A DNA stretch of 64,000 bases from Escherichia coli (GCF_036507355.1 NZ_AP027877.1), one strand, 5' to 3'. Shown: positions 1 through 47,848, counted from the stretch's first letter. The notes: generated by a model from the letters alone, not told the origin. Translations and numbers: made by a program.

Positions 1-228
1 CGTTCACCGAATACGTGCGCAACAACCGTCTTCCGGAGCCTGTCATACGCGTAAAACAGCCAGCGCTGGCGCGATTTAGCCCCGACATAGCCCCACTGTT
101 CGTCCATTTCCGCGCAGACGATGACGTCACTGCCCGGCTGTATGCGCGAGGTTACCGACTGCGGCCTGAGTTTTTTAAGTGACGTAAAATCGTGTTGAGG
201 CCAACGCCCATAATGCGGGCTGTTGCCC
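1..228 (-). CDS. insB: IS1 InsB (transposase part), 3' end beyond window; not in ORF track
   Basis: Reverse-strand translation from the ATG at 228..226 gives [78 protein letters not shown]..., running off the window start. Confidence 0.8.
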
Positions 229-427
229 GGCATCCAACGCCATTCATGGCCATATCAATGATTTTCTGGTGCGTACCGGGTTGAGAAGCGGTGTAAGTGA
301 ACTGCAGTTGCCATGTTTTACGGCAGTGAGAGCAGAGATAGCGCTGATGTCCGGCGGTGCTTTTGCCGTTACGCACCACCCCGTCAGTAGCTGAACAGGA
401 GGGACAGCTGATAGAAACAGAAGCCAC
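152..427 (-). CDS. insA: IS1 transposition protein InsA (91 aa)
   Basis: ORF-track protein [43 protein letters not shown]... with CxxC...CxxC zinc finger; recognised as IS1 InsA. Confidence 0.95.
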
Positions 428-468
428 TGGAGCACCTCAAAAACACCATCATACACTAAATCAGTAAG

Positions 469-1848
469 TTGGCAGCATCACCCCTTATTGGGGTTGTGGT
501 TATTGTGGGTGTAGCTCGCTACATCATTAAAGGGTATTCCGCCACTGGCGTGTTATTTGTCGGTGGCCTGTTATTGCTGATTATCAGTGCCATTATGGGG
601 CACAAAGTGTTACCGTCCAGCCAGGCTTCAACAGGCTACAGCGCCACGGATATTGTTGAATACGTTAAAATATTGCTAATGAGCCGCGGCGGCGACCTCG
701 GCATGATGATTATGATGCTGTGTGGCTTTGCCGCTTACATGACCCATATCGGCGCGAATGATATGGTGGTCAAGCTGGCGTCAAAACCATTGCAGTATAT
801 TAACTCCCCCTACCTGCTGATGATTGCCGCCTATTTTGTTGCCTGTCTGATGTCACTGGCCGTCTCTTCCGCAACCGGTCTGGGTGTTTTGCTGATGGCA
901 ACCCTGTTTCCGGTGATGGTAAACGTTGGTATCAGTCGTGGGGCAGCAGCTGCCATTTGTGCCTCCCCGGCGGCGATTATTCTCGCACCGACTTCAGGGG
1001 ATGTGGTGCTGGCGGCGCAAGCTTCCGAAATGTCGCTGATTGACTTCGCCTTCAAAACGACGCTGCCTATCTCAATTGCTGCAATTATCGGCATGGCGAT
1101 CGCCCACTTCTTCTGGCAACGTTATCTGGATAAAAAAGAGCACATATCTCATGAAATGTTAGATGTCAGTGAAATAACCACCACTGCCCCTGCGTTTTAT
1201 GCCATTTTGCCGTTCACGCCGATCATCGGGGTGCTGATTTTTGACGGCAAATGGGGTCCGCAATTACACATCATCACTATTCTGGTGATTTGTATGCTGA
1301 TTGCCTCCATTCTGGAGTTCCTCCGCAGCTTTAATACCCAGAAAGTTTTCTCTGGTCTGGAAGTGGCTTATCGCGGGATGGCAGATGCATTTGCAAACGT
1401 GGTGATGCTGCTGGTTGCCGCTGGGGTATTCGCTCAGGGGCTTAGCACCATCGGCTTTATTCAAAGTCTGATTTCTATCGCTACCTCGTTTGGTTCGGCG
1501 AGTATCATCCTGATGCTGGTATTGGTGATTCTGACAATGCTGGCGGCAGTCACGACCGGTTCAGGCAATGCGCCGTTTTATGCGTTTGTTGAGATGATCC
1601 CGAAACTGGCGCACTCTTCCGGCATTAACCCGGCGTATTTGACTATCCCGATGCTGCAGGCGTCAAACCTGGGTCGTACCCTATCACCCGTTTCTGGCGT
1701 AGTCGTTGCGGTTGCCGGGATGGCGAAAATCTCACCATTTGAAGTCGTAAAACGCACCTCGGTGCCGGTGCTTGTTGGTTTGGTGATTGTTATCGTTGCT
1801 ACAGAGCTGATGGTGCCAGGAACGGCAGCAGCGGTCACAGGCAAGTAA
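469..1848 (+). CDS. dcuC: C4-dicarboxylate transporter DcuC, 5' end disrupted by IS1; ORF opens at a TTG inside the IS1 end
   Basis: 459-aa ORF ...LIGVVVIVGVARYIIKGYSATGV... recognised as DcuC; it starts flush with the IS1 inverted repeat, so the native first codons and promoter are missing from this side. Confidence 0.85.
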   Translation: MAASPLIGVVVIVGVARYIIKGYSATGVLFVGGLLLLIISAIMGHKVLPSSQASTGYSATDIVEYVKILLMSRGGDLGMMIMMLCGFAAYMTHIGANDMVVKLASKPLQYINSPYLLMIAAYFVACLMSLAVSSATGLGVLLMATLFPVMVNVGISRGAAAAICASPAAIILAPTSGDVVLAAQASEMSLIDFAFKTTLPISIAAIIGMAIAHFFWQRYLDKKEHISHEMLDVSEITTTAPAFYAILPFTPIIGVLIFDGKWGPQLHIITILVICMLIASILEFLRSFNTQKVFSGLEVAYRGMADAFANVVMLLVAAGVFAQGLSTIGFIQSLISIATSFGSASIILMLVLVILTMLAAVTTGSGNAPFYAFVEMIPKLAHSSGINPAYLTIPMLQASNLGRTLSPVSGVVVAVAGMAKISPFEVVKRTSVPVLVGLVIVIVATELMVPGTAAAVTGK

Positions 1849-1856
1849 ATAGTAAT

Positions 1857-1885
1857 GCCGGAGGCAAGTTTCCTCCGGCTTTATC
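1857..1885. terminator. Hairpin GCCGGAGG-N7-CCTCCGGC followed by TTTATC, between convergent dcuC and dpiA
   Basis: Perfect 8-bp inverted repeat with a short T-run; sits between two convergent stop codons. Confidence 0.5.
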
Positions 1886-1888
1886 ATG

Positions 1889-2569
1889 TCACCCACTGTG
1901 GTATATGCGTTGCGGTCTGCCAACTTTGCCGTGAACAATTTCAGCAATAATCAGATGGCGGCTGGCGCAATATTCAAGATAACGCCTGGCAGTGGTGCGG
2001 CTGATGGTCAGTGCCTGCGCCACTGTTTCTGCCGTATGTTGCACACCCGGCTCTTTGAACAGTTTTCGCACCGCGTTTAGCGTCAAAGGGTCAATGCCGG
2101 TCGGCAGTTCGTCTTTGGGTTCACCGCGAGCATAGGCATTAAACATCTCATCAATTTGCTTCTGGCTGGCGCTATCAATACTTTCCAGCATATGTTTACG
2201 CTGGCGGAAACGGGTTAGCGTTTGCCCCAGCCGTTCATAGGCAATTGGCTTAATGAGATAATCAAATACACCACAACGTACGGCTTCAGACACCGTTTCC
2301 ATATCGCTGGCTGCAGTGGTAAACACCACGTCGCCGGGATAATGCGCCTGCACCAGTTCATGCAGTAAATTAATCCCTCTACCGTCAGGAAGATAGTTAT
2401 CGAGCAAGATTAGCCCCGGCTTAAAACGCTCGATCATCATTCGGGCCTGCGCCAGGTTTCCCGCCAGTAATATCTGACTGAATCCGGGAATGTGACGAAT
2501 ATATTCCGCATGCATCTCTGCCAGCGGCGTTTCGTCCTCAACGATCAATAGGGTTAATGGAGCTGTCAT
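1889..2569 (-). CDS. dpiA: Response regulator DpiA (CitB)
   Basis: 226-aa ORF MTAPLTLLIVEDETPLAEMHAEYIRH... with receiver domain; adjacent and overlapping dpiB. Confidence 0.93.
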   Translation of the reverse strand: MTAPLTLLIVEDETPLAEMHAEYIRHIPGFSQILLAGNLAQARMMIERFKPGLILLDNYLPDGRGINLLHELVQAHYPGDVVFTTAASDMETVSEAVRCGVFDYLIKPIAYERLGQTLTRFRQRKHMLESIDSASQKQIDEMFNAYARGEPKDELPTGIDPLTLNAVRKLFKEPGVQHTAETVAQALTISRTTARRYLEYCASRHLIIAEIVHGKVGRPQRIYHSG

Positions 2570-4196
2570 TAGGTTTCACTTTCGGAATATAGATTGAAAA
2601 TAAGGTACCGCAGGGATCATTATCTTCGAGAGTGATAACACCACCGCAGCGCGTTACGTAGCTGGCAATCAAGTACAACCCAATGCCATGTTCACCGGGC
2701 TCGTCAGCACGCGTACTGACCCCCTGCTCAAATATTTTGTCTCGTAGAGACTCTGGAACGCCGCAGCCCTGATCGGCGACTTCAATCACCACATCATCGC
2801 CTTCATCGCTGAGGAATAATTCAACGATCTTGTTTCCTTCATCGCTACGCAGGCTGGCTTCGAAGGCGTTATCAAGTAAATTTCCCACAATGGCGGCAAA
2901 CTCGGTGCTATCCAGTCCTGGCGGCAGTTGCGAAAGCTGGCTACCGGGGACGATGATCATTTTTAGCCCCAGTTCGCGGGCGCGCTGCACTTTACCAAAA
3001 AGCAGCCCCGCCACCTGGCGATCGGCAAACGCCTCGCGCAGGCTGTCAATAAGCTGTTGCTGGGCCTGAGACTCCCCCTGCACCATCGCCAGCACGCGAT
3101 CATACTCTTTCATCTGCAACAGACCATTGAGCGTCGACATCCAATTGAGATGCTCGTGTCGCAATGTACGAAGGCTCTCGACGTATTGTTTTATTTGCGT
3201 CAGTTGCGCATTGAGGGTGGAAATTTCGTCTTTACTACGAAAGCTGATAATGGCCCCCAGCAAATCATCACCTGAACGAATAGCTTCCCGATTGGCAATA
3301 ACGCTCAGACCGTTAAAGTTAGCCACCACATCCTGACGTTTTTCATCAATCTGTTCGGTAAAGAAATCGGCGGGCCTGACCACTTCAGCAATGGGTTTAC
3401 CCAACCATTGCCGTCCGGGGGAACTCAGCCCCAGCATCTTTCTTGCGTTACGATTGATGGCGGTAATGTAACCGTGCGGATCCACCGCAATCAGCCCTTC
3501 ATAAACCGAACTAAACAGCGCCTCTTGCTGACGGACCACGCGTGCGATTTGCTTTGGCTCCATGCCCATCATCTGCCGACGGATATGCGCGGCCAGGAAC
3601 CACGACAGCAACATCAGAATCCCTAACAGCACGACAAACACACCTGCCATCGGTAATAAAAACTCAGCCCGCCAGCTATCGATTTTACTCACCAGGTAGC
3701 CAATCGACACCACGCCGATGACTTTTCCATCGTCATCAAAGATTGGCGTTTTGGCGCGCATCGCCATACCCATTGACCCTTTCCCGGTAATGAAGTAGCT
3801 CTCCCCTTTCTCCAGCGCGCCCTGTTTGGTGAACTGCATAGGATAACCAATTTTCTCCGGATTAGGATGGTAAAGGCGGATCGAGTGCCGGTCGCCAATC
3901 ACCACATAATCAAAATCGGTATCTCTTTGTAATTTGTTAGCGATGGTCGCCAGCCGTTTGTAGTCACGCGTTTTCACCGTAGAGATGACACTGTCATTGG
4001 AGGCAATAATTTTCGCCTGATTCATTGCCATGTCGCGTACATGAAGCGTTAAATAGTCCTCAAAACTGGCCGTAAAATATTGCGCCAGGGCTGCAATGAC
4101 AAATATTGAGAACACCAGAATCAGCAAAAAGATACGCAGCGGAAATGCCAGTCTTTGGAAAAATGCAAACTGTTTATTCTCGTTAAGCTGCAACAT
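2538..4196 (-). CDS. dpiB: Sensor histidine kinase DpiB (CitA)
   Basis: ORF 2538..4256; start trimmed to the internal Met (MLQLNENKQFAFF...) matching the recalled DpiB N-terminus; histidine kinase motifs in the C-terminal half. Confidence 0.9.
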   Translation of the reverse strand: MLQLNENKQFAFFQRLAFPLRIFLLILVFSIFVIAALAQYFTASFEDYLTLHVRDMAMNQAKIIASNDSVISTVKTRDYKRLATIANKLQRDTDFDYVVIGDRHSIRLYHPNPEKIGYPMQFTKQGALEKGESYFITGKGSMGMAMRAKTPIFDDDGKVIGVVSIGYLVSKIDSWRAEFLLPMAGVFVVLLGILMLLSWFLAAHIRRQMMGMEPKQIARVVRQQEALFSSVYEGLIAVDPHGYITAINRNARKMLGLSSPGRQWLGKPIAEVVRPADFFTEQIDEKRQDVVANFNGLSVIANREAIRSGDDLLGAIISFRSKDEISTLNAQLTQIKQYVESLRTLRHEHLNWMSTLNGLLQMKEYDRVLAMVQGESQAQQQLIDSLREAFADRQVAGLLFGKVQRARELGLKMIIVPGSQLSQLPPGLDSTEFAAIVGNLLDNAFEASLRSDEGNKIVELFLSDEGDDVVIEVADQGCGVPESLRDKIFEQGVSTRADEPGEHGIGLYLIASYVTRCGGVITLEDNDPCGTLFSIYIPKVKPNDSSINPIDR

Positions 4197-13105: not shown

Positions 13106-14344
13106 TCATATTGTTCCCCCCGGCATCGCATTCACCAGACCTGAAACCGCCTTCTGCGCCGCCTCTGCGCTTTGTGCACCGGGTACCAGAATCACCTTAC
13201 GGCACTCCTCTTCACGTTTTTCGAAAATCTCATATCCCCGGGCGGCCTCTTCAAACGGCATATAGTGGGTAACAATTTCTTCTGGTTTCAGTAATCCTTT
13301 CTCAATTAACGGTAATAATTCTCCCAGCCATGCGTGAACGTGGGTCTGTCCCATTTTAAACGTCAACCCTTTATCAAAGGCGTCGCCAAACAGGAAACCG
13401 TGAATAAATCCAGCGTAGACGCCCGGTACGCTAACAATGCCGCCACGCCTGACCGCCGCAATACACTGACGCAACGCTTTACCGCTGCTGCCCTCCAGTT
13501 TCAGGTTAGTCAGCACCGTTTCCGTGGTGCTGCCTTTCGCTTCAAAACCGACGGCGTCTATTACTGCATCCACGCCCCGGTGACCTGCCGTTTGTTCAAT
13601 AATTGACTGTGCCGGATCGCTATCTTCATCGAAATTAATCGGGATCGCGCCGTAGCGGTCAGCGGCGAAACGCAAGCGGTAGGGATGATGATCAACAACA
13701 AAAATCTGTTCCGCACCGAGCAACCGTGCACAGGCGATTGTCAACAATCCCACAGGACCAGCACCATAGACAGCAACGCTTGAACTTTGTTGGATCTGCG
13801 CATTTTTTGCTGCCTGCCATGCCGTTGGCAGAATATCAGAAAGGAAAAGGGCTTTATCATCTGAAAGCAAAGGCGGTACTTTAAACGGCCCCACATTCCC
13901 TTTAGGGACGCGGACATATTCCGCCTGCCCACCAGGAACGCCACCATACAGGTGACTATAACCAAACAATGCCGCGGGAGCTGGTATCTGTTTTTTATTG
14001 AGCGCAGCGCCTTTACCCGCATTGGTATTTTCGCAGGCGGCATATTACTGCATTCGACAGAAAAAACAGTCGCCACAAGCAATGACAAACGGAATTACCA
14101 CCCGGTCGCCTTTTTGCAAATTTTTTACGTCCTTTCCGGTTTCAACTACTTCCCCCATAAATTCATGACCAAAAATATCGCCATGTTTAACCTGGGGTAT
14201 TTTGCCTCGATAAAGATGGAGGTCAGAGCCACAGATCGCCGTTGCCGTAATACGCAGAATAATATCATCTGCCTGTTCAACGCCCGGATCGGGAACATTT
14301 TCTACCTGAACGTTATATGGGCCGTGATAAGTCAATGCTTTCAT
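13106..14344 (-). pseudogene. ybdR: Zn-dependent alcohol dehydrogenase family gene ybdR interrupted by an in-frame TAA at codon 100
   Basis: ORFs 14045..14344 (99 aa) and 13106..13969 (287 aa) are in the same frame; the 25 codons between them read [26 protein letters not shown], continuing the protein; total 412 codons with one internal stop (complement of 14045..14047). Confidence 0.85.
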
Positions 14345-17742: not shown

Positions 17743-18489
17743 ATGTTAAAAAAGATACTTTTACTGGCTCTGCTTCCTGCAATCGCCTTCGCAGAGGAAC
17801 TTCCTGCTCCAGTAAAAGCGATTGAAAAACAGGGTATTACGATCATCAAAACGTTCGATGCCCCCGGAGGAATGAAAGGTTATCTCGGAAAGTATCAGGA
17901 TATGGGCGTCACCATCTACCTGACTCCAGATGGTAAGCACGCTATCTCTGGTTACATGTACAACGAGAAAGGTGAAAACCTGAGTAACACACTTATCGAA
18001 AAAGAAATTTACGCACCAGCCGGACGCGAAATGTGGCAACGGATGGAACAATCCCACTGGCTCCTCGACGGTAAAAAAGACGCGCCGGTCATTGTCTACG
18101 TCTTCGCCGATCCGTTCTGCCCATATTGTAAACAGTTCTGGCAGCAGGCGCGCCCGTGGGTAGATTCTGGCAAAGTACAGTTGAGAACATTGTTGGTTGG
18201 GGTTATCAAACCAGAAAGTCCGGCGACAGCCGCGGCAATTCTTGCCTCCAAAGATCCCGCAAAAACCTGGCAAGAATATGAAGCCTCTGGTGGCAAGCTT
18301 AAGCTAAACGTGCCTGCAAACGTAAGTACAGAGCAAATGAAAGTGTTAAGCGACAACGAGAAACTCATGGACGATCTGGGGGCAAATGTCACTCCGGCTA
18401 TCTATTACATGAGTAAGGAAAATACGCTGCAACAGGCCGTGGGGTTGCCCGATCAGAAAACGCTTAATATCATTATGGGAAATAAATAA
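17743..18489 (+). CDS. dsbG: Periplasmic disulfide isomerase DsbG
   Basis: ORF 17683..18489 trimmed to [17 protein letters not shown] (signal peptide); CPYC active site present. Confidence 0.9.
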
Positions 18490-18697
18490 AAGGTAATTCA
18501 TGGATGGTTGAACTATATCCCTGCTTTTCAACCATCCTAAAAAAGCATGAATTGCTCGCTCTGCCCTAAGTGGCTGTGCTATTTTAGAAAAACTTAATCC
18601 TGAGTTAAGCAAAAAAACATAATCAATAAAAATATATACGCAAAAAACATTGATTAAGTGAATATATCATGGAAGAAAAATATAACCGGAGTAGTGT

Positions 18698-19600
18698 ATG
18701 ACCAATCTCTACGACTTGAAAAAGTTCGACTTAAATCTTCTTGTCATATTTGAGTGTATTTACCAGCATTTAAGCATTAGCAAAGCTGCTGAATCACTAT
18801 ATATCACCCCATCAGCCGTGAGCCAGTCGTTACAACGCTTACGTGCGCAATTTAATGACCCTTTATTCATTCGCTCAGGAAAAGGTATCGCGCCGACGAC
18901 AACAGGGTTAAATCTGCATCACCATCTTGAGAAAAATCTCAGAGGCCTTGAACAAACAATTAATATAGTCAATAAGTCCGAACTAAAGAAAAACTTTATT
19001 ATTCACGGCCCTCAGCTCATTTCTTGCTCTAATAATAGTATGCTGATCCGCTGCCTACGGCAAGATTCCTCTGTCGAGATTGAGTGCCATGATATCCTCA
19101 TGTCAGCAGAGAATGCTGAAGAACTGTTGGTTCACCGCAAAGCCGATCTGGTGATCACCCAAATGCCAGTGATCAGCCGTTCCGTCATTTGCATGCCATT
19201 GCATACGATTCGCAATACTCTAATTTGTAGTAATAGGCATCCACGAATTACTGACAATAGCACTTATGAACAAATTATGGCAGAAGAGTTCACCCAATTA
19301 ATATCTAAATCAGCAGGGGTTGATGATATTCAAATGGAAATAGACGAGAGATTTATGAATCGCAAAATTTCATTTCGTGGTTCCTCTTTGCTGACAATCA
19401 TTAATAGCATTGCAGTTACAGATTTACTGGGAATAGTCCCCTATGAACTTTATAACTCCCACCGTGACTTTCTTAATTTAAAAGAGATAAAACTAGAACA
19501 TCCGTTACCTTCAATAAAGCTTTACATTTCCTATAATAAATCTTCTTTAAACAATCTGGTGTTCTCCCGATTTATTGACCGTCTAAATGAGTGTTTTTGA
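18698..19600 (+). CDS. ybdO: LysR-family transcriptional regulator YbdO
   Basis: 300-aa ORF with N-terminal helix-turn-helix (ISKAAESLYITPSAVSQSLQRLR); coding sequence markedly AT-rich by eye. Confidence 0.9.
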   Translation: MTNLYDLKKFDLNLLVIFECIYQHLSISKAAESLYITPSAVSQSLQRLRAQFNDPLFIRSGKGIAPTTTGLNLHHHLEKNLRGLEQTINIVNKSELKKNFIIHGPQLISCSNNSMLIRCLRQDSSVEIECHDILMSAENAEELLVHRKADLVITQMPVISRSVICMPLHTIRNTLICSNRHPRITDNSTYEQIMAEEFTQLISKSAGVDDIQMEIDERFMNRKISFRGSSLLTIINSIAVTDLLGIVPYELYNSHRDFLNLKEIKLEHPLPSIKLYISYNKSSLNNLVFSRFIDRLNECF

Positions 19601-46641: not shown

Positions 46642-46762
46642 TTGACAACATCTGGTACGATTCGCCCGCAGCCATCACTGACTGCGGGCGAAAGTGTAAA
46701 GCAGGTGCCTTACCACTCTGACCTGACAACCGGATATGCGGGGATTGCTCCCCGCACAACGG

Positions 46763-46915
46763 CTACTTCTTCGGTTCGTAAGCGAGAACAGCCTTAAACT
46801 CAATATTACGTTCCTTTACGGTGAACTCACACAGCGAGTCTCCGACCAGAAGCGTAAATCCCAGCACCGTCAAACACAGCACTATGACTGCCACAAGGGC
46901 ATATTTCGTCAGCAT
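46763..46915 (-). CDS. hokE: Hok-family type I toxin, copy 1 (50 aa)
   Basis: [50 protein letters not shown]; GGAGG Shine-Dalgarno 8 nt upstream of the ATG. Confidence 0.85.
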
Positions 46916-46954
46916 GTTTATATTGCCTCCATGCGAAGAAGGGACTACCATCCG

Positions 46955-47020
46955 AGTTGTTGAGGCTCGGAGTGGCAGCCCCAGGATTGATAGAAATATC
47001 TCCTGGGGCTTCATCTTTCC
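46955..47020 (+). ncRNA. Expected Sok-type antisense RNA of hok copy 1 (coordinates approximate)
   Basis: Inferred from hok/sok architecture: antisense RNA overlapping the leader and upstream ATG of the hok mRNA; no promoter or ends mapped. Confidence 0.25.
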
Positions 47021-47265
47021 AGACCTCAGAGTTAACCTGAAACCGGAAAGCTTCAGGCACCCGCCGTTATCTTACCCTTCCTTAGCAAAATAGCTGTTTA
47101 TTTATACAGTGAATCCTGTTTCGGACTTCTGTCGGCAAAACTCATCATTGCTCTTAAAACGAAATCGCCCGCAGCCATCACTGACCGCGGGCGAAAGTGT
47201 AAAGCAGGTGCCTTACCATCCTGACCTGACAACCGGATATGCGGGGATTACTCCCCGCACAACGG

Positions 47266-47418
47266 CTACTTCTTCGGTTCGTAAGCGAGAACAGCCCTGA
47301 ACTCAATATTACGTTCCTTCACCGTAAACTCACACAGCGAGTCTCCGACCAGAAGCGTAAATCCCAGTACCGTCAAACACAGCACTATGACTGCCACAAG
47401 GGCATATTTCGTCAGCAT
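47266..47418 (-). CDS. Hok-family type I toxin, copy 2 (50 aa, K41R relative to copy 1)
   Basis: [50 protein letters not shown]; same SD context as copy 1. Confidence 0.85.
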
Positions 47419-47457
47419 GTTTATATTGCCTCCATGCGAAGAAGGAACTACCATCCA

Positions 47458-47525
47458 AATTGTCTGGTTTGGAGTGGCAGCCCCAGGGTTGATAGAAATA
47501 TCTCCTGGGGCTTCATCTTTCCAGA
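47458..47525 (+). ncRNA. Expected Sok-type antisense RNA of hok copy 2 (coordinates approximate)
   Basis: Same inference as for copy 1. Confidence 0.25.
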
Positions 47526-47848
47526 CCTCAGAGTAAACCTGAAACCGGAAAGCTTCAGGCACCCGCCGTTATCTTACCTTTGCTTAGCAAAATAGCTGTT
47601 TATTTATACAGTAAGTCCTGTTTCGGACTTCTCACTCCCCATTTGATCAACTGAAGCTGAACCCGTTTTTTTCTGCATGCCTCAATCGTCAAAATTCTTC
47701 GCCACCAGCCAGCCGTGCCATAACTTGTCACATTGCAAAAGTAGCCAATTTGCTTCAGTCACCATCACCAAAAAAAGAAATATTCCAGAACTTCCGCATC
47801 TCGCCCAGCCGCTCCGACTTCTATACTGAATAGAAAACGCCAACATAA

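Follow-up and report, generated by a model that had tools for sequence, protein, structure and literature searches.

IS1 inserted in codon 7 of dcuC, probably leaving a silent or nearly silent carrier gene in Escherichia coli

The dcuC Locus and Its Neighborhood

The DNA analyzed here, referred to as the window, is a stretch of 64,000 nucleotides from Escherichia coli (GCF_036507355.1, NZ_AP027877.1). It opens inside an IS1 element whose terminus abuts dcuC, and dcuC is followed by dpiA and dpiB. The features of this left part are the following:

1–482, minus strand: partial IS1 (IS1A-like), the insA-proximal 482 of 768 bp, continuing beyond the left edge of the window
152–427, minus strand: insA, intact, 91 aa, from ORF and profile matches, with transcription directed away from dcuC
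170–178, minus strand: programmed −1 frameshift motif of IS1 (A6C), TTAAAAAAC, read from the sequence
460–482, minus strand: left terminal inverted repeat of IS1 (IRL), GGTGATGCTGCCAACTTACTGAT, exact match at 23/23
469–474, plus strand: TTGGCA, −35-like box facing outward from the IS1 end, with the TTG "start codon" making up its first three bases
469–1848, plus strand: junction ORF with TTG start, 459 aa, made of five IS1-derived residues, (M)AASP, and then DcuC residues 8–461
480–494, plus strand: hairpin created by the junction, ACCCC-TTATT-GGGGT, −8.6 kcal/mol
483–491, plus strand: predicted right-hand copy of a 9-bp target-site duplication, CCTTATTGG, by reference to other IS1 events at the locus
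483–1848, plus strand: remainder of dcuC, starting at nucleotide 21 (third base of codon 7) and running through the native stop, aligned to native dcuC starts, body undamaged
1857–1879, no strand assigned: bidirectional terminator hairpin between the convergent dcuC and dpiA
1889–2569, minus strand: dpiA (citB), response regulator, native neighbor, intact (NF007467, 520 bits, full length)
2538–4196, minus strand: dpiB (citA), sensor kinase, native neighbor, intact (NF011627, 1226 bits, profile 1–552 of 552)

The context expected for the gene is pagP-dcuC-dpiA dpiB-citCDEFXGT; its right side was found as expected, whereas the left neighbor, pagP, is replaced by IS1. The order of dpiA and dpiB agrees with that of E. 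coli GPT24-02, and the downstream genes (dpiA, dpiB, citCDEFXGT, rna, rnk, ahpCF, the ent/fep cluster and cusCFBA/RS) follow in the order normal for E. coli. No further IS was found downstream of dcuC in the window, which is collinear with E. coli across 64 kb. Over 20 kb, the nearest complete E. coli genome reaches 99.4% identity, which points to a sparsely sampled lineage of the E. coli/Shigella group.

Other loci of the window were recorded in passing. The gene ybdR, encoding a zinc-dependent alcohol dehydrogenase (13106–14344, minus strand; 412 aa in other E. coli), carries the amber mutation Q100* (G>A at 14047 on the plus strand, stop codon 14045–14047); since gene calling also breaks it into two parts (about 99 and 287 aa) in the related sequences L005 and L006, ybdR is a lineage-wide pseudogene. 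The hokE/sok toxin-antitoxin locus (46662–47632) is a tandem duplication of two copies with a 503-bp period and 95–96% identity, comprising two sok RNAs (RF01794; 46907–47062 and 47410–47564, minus strand) and a pair of Hok ORFs of 50 aa each; no IS adjoins the duplication, and E. coli GPT24-02 has IS421 there. The rnk leader (RF01771, 12311–12419), STnc70 (RF02069, 17516–17609) and ES036 (RF02751, 45921–45962) are expected and unremarkable small RNA elements.

The IS1 End and the dcuC Body

Positions 1–482 share 99.4% identity with a copy in E. coli MB51 (L001) that is annotated as IS1A ("IS1-like element IS1A family"), and the window starts at about position 287 of the 768-bp element. IS1 is bounded by terminal inverted repeats of about 23 bp (IRL, GGTGATGCTGCCAACTTACTGAT; IRR, GGTAATGACTCCAACTTATTGAT), of which only the IRL falls inside the window; it is the sole IS1 end within the 64 kb, with 0 chance matches expected, and it terminates at 482, as a preliminary description of this DNA had proposed. 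The insA product scored 91.3 bits against the IS1 family transposase model NF033558, under the 100-bit cut-off of that model, and 41 bits against NF050000, the zinc-binding (zinc-ribbon) domain of IS1, over its 28-bit cut-off. A consensus scan located the insA promoter at 475–448 on the minus strand; insB' lies only partly inside the window. The element thus has one inverted repeat, an insA with model matches and the A6C frameshift motif expected of the IS1 family; the IS1 copies in L001 and in E. coli FDAARGOS_1284 (L002) are annotated with "programmed frameshift".

The native dcuC start is ATGCTGACATTCATTGA(A/G)CTCCTTATTGGGG, that is, ATG CTG ACA TTC ATT GA(A/G) CTC CTT ATT GGG GTT, and the window picks the gene up at coding nucleotide 21, reading C CTT ATT GGG GTT from position 483. 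The DcuC frame was therefore rightly said to resume straight after IS1, in frame from codon 7, and the longest ORF does begin at the TTG at 469 within the IS1 end. An alignment might have disclosed a different protein, but the junction ORF is DcuC, with 881 bits against the DcuC equivalog NF007937 (cut-off 513); its residues 6–452 align with profile positions 8–454 of 455, positions 1–7 being missing. Residues 6–459 are identical to residues 8–461 of the intact DcuC in the closest relative, L005. Most of the first hydrophobic segment (LIGVVVIVGVARYII) is retained, and broad DcuC family models begin only at residues 19 or 56, so that the extreme N-terminus of DcuC may tolerate change.

What is absent on the dcuC side of IS1 is six codons plus 2 nt (the first 20 nt of the coding sequence), together with the ribosome-binding site (GGAGACAGGAAAAATT) and the entire 587-bp pagP-dcuC intergenic region. 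A search for the missing 5' fragment across the window did not find it elsewhere (remaining 63.5 kb). An intact gene would have its native ATG, ribosome-binding site and promoter, none of which lies on this side, and the allele would be classed from its sequence as a dcuC pseudogene or disrupted allele rather than as a functional member. The preliminary description had the start codon, roughly the first seven codons and the promoter displaced across the IS; their absence on this side held, whereas we infer both their position just beyond the far side of IS1 and the silencing itself.

The predicted duplication CCTTATTGG spans codons 7–10 and has G/C ends and an A/T core. In this it resembles preferred IS1 targets.

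Promoter and Translation Signals at the Junction

The IS1 inverted repeat carries an outward −35 box, and a hybrid promoter forms if a −10 box is suitably spaced from it (PMC8764528). At this junction, no −10 hexamer was found 15–19 bp past the TTGGCA, the hexamers there matching TATAAT at 0–2 of 6 positions, and a consensus scan of the plus strand over window positions 1–2000 returned no sigma-70-like promoter. A hybrid promoter at the dcuC junction was consequently rejected, the −35 box being present without the −10 box that such a promoter requires in the target DNA at 16–18 bp. The own promoter of IS1 is of no use to dcuC because the IS1 genes are transcribed away from it.

The translation signals were examined at three in-frame codons. 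Shine-Dalgarno pairing was estimated at −0.2 kcal/mol for TTG469 versus −6.4 kcal/mol for native dcuC, and TTG469 was rejected as unlikely to be a real start, since it has almost no such pairing and overlaps the −35 box. As the TTG is the first half of that box, the transcript of any TTGGCA hybrid promoter would begin downstream of it, and the hybrid promoter and the TTG469 start are therefore mutually exclusive. GTG496 and GTG505 showed moderate pairing with the anti-Shine-Dalgarno sequence through a G-run (−5.4 kcal/mol). The hairpin at 480–494 pairs the IS1 tip with this G-run, the only Shine-Dalgarno-like element available to either GTG; the spacing from the G-run to GTG496 is only 2 nt, and starts at GTG496 or GTG505 would lose 11–14 residues of the first hydrophobic segment. 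The preliminary description had left the transporter either silenced or expressed from an IS-derived promoter; the lack of a plus-strand promoter, of a −10 box and of a Shine-Dalgarno element at TTG469 favors the former.

Relatives and Recurrent Insertions at dcuC

The closest relative found was L005 (Logan assembly of ERR3330519). Over 13.7 kb it has 4 SNPs relative to the window, all outside dcuC, and its dcuC is intact and adjoins pagP. The insertion in the window is recent, because the dcuC body there is still identical to the intact allele of L005, and the ancestral left neighbor was pagP, because this is the arrangement of L005. To the left of pagP in L005 lies ybeF (18190–18990), a LysR-type regulator gene whose product has 266 aa compared with 317 aa in L004 (GCA_038628325.1); this may be another lineage-specific truncation, and the exact 266-aa YbeF protein is carried by only 5 contigs in the public collection.

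The draft assembly GCA_045080605.1 (L003, 1–1492) includes a gene call for exactly the junction-ORF protein; its contig starts inside IS1, carries the same 126 bp of the IS1 end and has the junction base for base as in the window and in the same orientation. Of 11,493 aligned positions in the flanking DNA, 118 differ between L003 and the window, about 25 of these being synonymous changes in dcuC; the dcuC allele is about 1–2% diverged, and the allele pattern of L003 matches L004, whose dcuC is intact. A shared ancestral insertion was rejected, as both lineages have close relatives with intact dcuC. For the same reason, the comparison suggests that the same site was hit independently, in the same orientation, in two lineages about 1% apart. 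Recombinational transfer of the junction, with a crossover within the first 66 bp of dcuC, is improbable.

The sibling SRR31122001 (3 SNPs in 13.5 kb from the window) has an IS1 elsewhere in dcuC, at about codon 75, in opposite orientation and with a clean 9-bp duplication, GATGATTAT. A contig of GCA_044688185.1 (L010) breaks at the same dcuC position; no IS1 sequence was seen there, and this genome probably carries the codon-75 insertion. The loci concerned are:

L006, 13470–13518: codon-75 dcuC insertion
L009, 1–30: codon-75 dcuC insertion
L010, 1–249: contig break at the same dcuC position

Among 5,426 complete RefSeq E. coli genomes, the junction of the window occurred in none (0). Two of them have IS1 upstream of the dcuC ATG in the orientation seen in the window, at 56 bp (MB51) and 45 bp (FDAARGOS_1284):

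FDAARGOS_1284 (L002), 1832–2599: IS1 upstream of dcuC
MB51 (L001), 1835–2600: IS1 upstream of dcuC

The FDAARGOS_1284 copy is flanked by a 9-bp duplication, AGGAATTTT. Its TTGGCA box and a TATTAT hexamer (5/6) are spaced 18 bp apart and, judged by these motifs, make up a plausible activating hybrid promoter that would render dcuC FNR-independent. In E. coli Eco_23-3571 (L031, 1873–4296), the IS5-like ISKpn26 stands in place of the DNA between pagP and dcuC and of the first 90 nt of dcuC, which RefSeq/PGAP annotates as a pseudogene, "incomplete; missing N-terminus". An uninterrupted 400-bp dcuC 5' region is lacking in 18 of the 5,411 genomes with a match.

Among the places listed in look-ups with DpiB, the lineage-specific truncated YbeF and PagP (both lineages), no contig joined pagP to the codon-7 junction; the lineage-B PagP allele was very common (81,267 blocks). 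The exact-protein look-up of the junction ORF returned only draft contigs that start inside IS1, and exact scans of metagenome_contigs and genome_contigs for the right junction gave no match. For screening public E. coli and Shigella reads at the dcuC site, the k-mers GCAGCATCACCCCTTATTGGGG and CTCCTTATTGGGGTAATGACTCC were defined.

The identical junction in two lineages suggests a preferred IS1 site. Taken together with the codon-75 hit, the two upstream IS1 copies and the IS5-type hits, it makes it conceivable, though somewhat doubtful, that the dcuC 5' end and CCTTATTGG (codons 7–10) form a true IS1 hot spot, or that loss or rewiring of dcuC has been selected repeatedly in some niches.

Origin and Consequences of the Insertion

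The locus is best accounted for by transposition of an IS1A-like element into dcuC between coding nucleotides 20 and 21 (codon 7), with its IRL/insA end facing the gene body. Such an event would part 454 of the 461 codons from the ATG and ribosome-binding site of the gene and from its native anaerobic promoter of the FNR type, and would supply neither a replacement promoter nor a usable translation start. A simple insertion would predict that the remaining 286 bp of IS1 end in the IRR GGTAATGACTCCAACTTATTGAT, the upstream DNA reading ...ATGCTGACATTCATTGAACTCCTTATTGG, with ...GGAAAAATTATGCTGACATTCATTGAACTCCTTATTGG before the IRR, giving the 9-bp duplication CCTTATTGG, and with pagP about 590 bp further on. 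Judged by these signals, the insertion probably leaves dcuC null or near-null, a silent or nearly silent pseudogene with an intact body. By analogy with the sibling events, simple transposition is the most likely event.

It is unlikely, although the possibility deserves some weight, that the left edge marks a rearrangement boundary, in which the dcuC 5' end, the promoter and possibly pagP were lost or moved elsewhere through an IS1-mediated adjacent deletion or an IS1-IS1 recombination (inversion or deletion). The window begins inside IS1, with the far side outside it, and the dcuC 5' fragment is absent from the rest of the window; in MB51 the IS1 beside dcuC abuts a 5'-truncated pagP, which is such a deletion, and the ISKpn26 replacement in Eco_23-3571 is of a comparable kind. 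However, the event in the same-lineage sibling SRR31122001 was a clean transposition with a 9-bp duplication, as was that in FDAARGOS_1284, and the identical junction in a second lineage is more readily explained by transposition into a preferred site than by two rearrangements that ended at one and the same point. Under simple insertion and rearrangement alike, dcuC is inactivated either way.

Expression of the junction ORF, by read-through from the displaced promoter or from a weak antisense start in IS1, with translation from TTG469 or GTG496/GTG505 giving an N-terminally altered and wholly or partly functional DcuC, is likewise judged improbable. The reading frame is kept across the fusion, the sequence beyond it is undamaged, the gene caller chose the TTG ORF in GCA_045080605.1, the GTG pair has its −5.4 kcal/mol pairing and IS1 ends are able to form hybrid promoters (PMC8764528). 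Nevertheless, the plus strand offers no promoter-like site, the −10 candidates scoring at most 2/6, and TTG469, without Shine-Dalgarno pairing and inside the −35 box, would precede the start of any transcript from a hybrid promoter. The −8.6 kcal/mol hairpin sequesters the G-run, which is only 2 nt from GTG496, and the GTG starts would delete part of the first hydrophobic segment. In addition, IS1 is strongly polar, classically in both orientations. The sole remaining route to expression is read-through from the displaced native promoter over 768 bp of untranslated IS1.

An assembly artefact, in which a contig was misjoined through a repeated IS1 copy and dcuC is actually intact, is scarcely credible: IS1 is multi-copy (up to 40 or more places per genome) and repeats cause misjoins, but a misjoin would not drop exactly 20 nt of dcuC and abut a precise IS1 terminus, and the same junction was assembled independently in GCA_045080605.1.

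Comparison with Known Insertions

Interruption of dcuC or its 5' region by a resident IS, in a viable strain, has precedents in K-12 W3110, which carries dcuC::IS5 (PMC2072959), and in kanamycin-evolved MG1655, in which IS5 insertions in the dcuC/pagP intergenic region arose repeatedly (PMC6307192). In these strains the element is IS5 and lies at another position, whereas in the window it is IS1 at codon 7, leaving an in-frame junction ORF. The elements of MB51 and FDAARGOS_1284 resemble that of the window in having the IRL towards dcuC and in lying within 60 bp of its site, but they are inserted upstream of the ATG and leave dcuC complete, while the insertion in the window is inside the coding sequence; it forms no hybrid promoter, in contrast to the plausible one of FDAARGOS_1284. 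The window shares the outward TTGGCA facing a downstream gene with the IS1 hybrid promoters described upstream of afaA, acrEF or blaTEM-6, yet it has no −10 box at 15–19 bp, and the transcript would also lack the ribosome-binding site and the TTG. In Eco_23-3571, as in the window, a dcuC without its N-terminus abuts an IS; there the element belongs to the IS5 family and 90 nt and the intergenic region are deleted, whereas only 20 nt are missing on this side in the window. The literature search found no paper describing an IS1 insertion in dcuC.

Meaning for the Strain and for dcuC

DcuC is an anaerobic C4-dicarboxylate carrier that acts alongside DcuA and DcuB and is made anaerobically; it is thought to be mainly a succinate efflux carrier in glucose fermentation, a role shared by DcuB (PMC6414658). 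Because the carriers are redundant and W3110 is viable with dcuC::IS5, the loss of dcuC is tolerated and its phenotype is probably subtle or mild. The prediction for the strain is that one redundant succinate efflux carrier would be lost in glucose fermentation, probably with a small phenotype.

The 459-aa TTG ORF, which at least one public gene call treats as a gene, belongs in annotation as an IS1-disrupted dcuC pseudogene and not as a DcuC protein. The case is an ordinary IS-mediated gene disruption, with no new system or mechanism, and its only mildly surprising element is the repeated hit of IS1 at the same nucleotide in independent lineages. IS hits that recur at the dcuC 5' end, twice at one nucleotide, make a modest case of IS1 target preference or of parallel loss of the gene.
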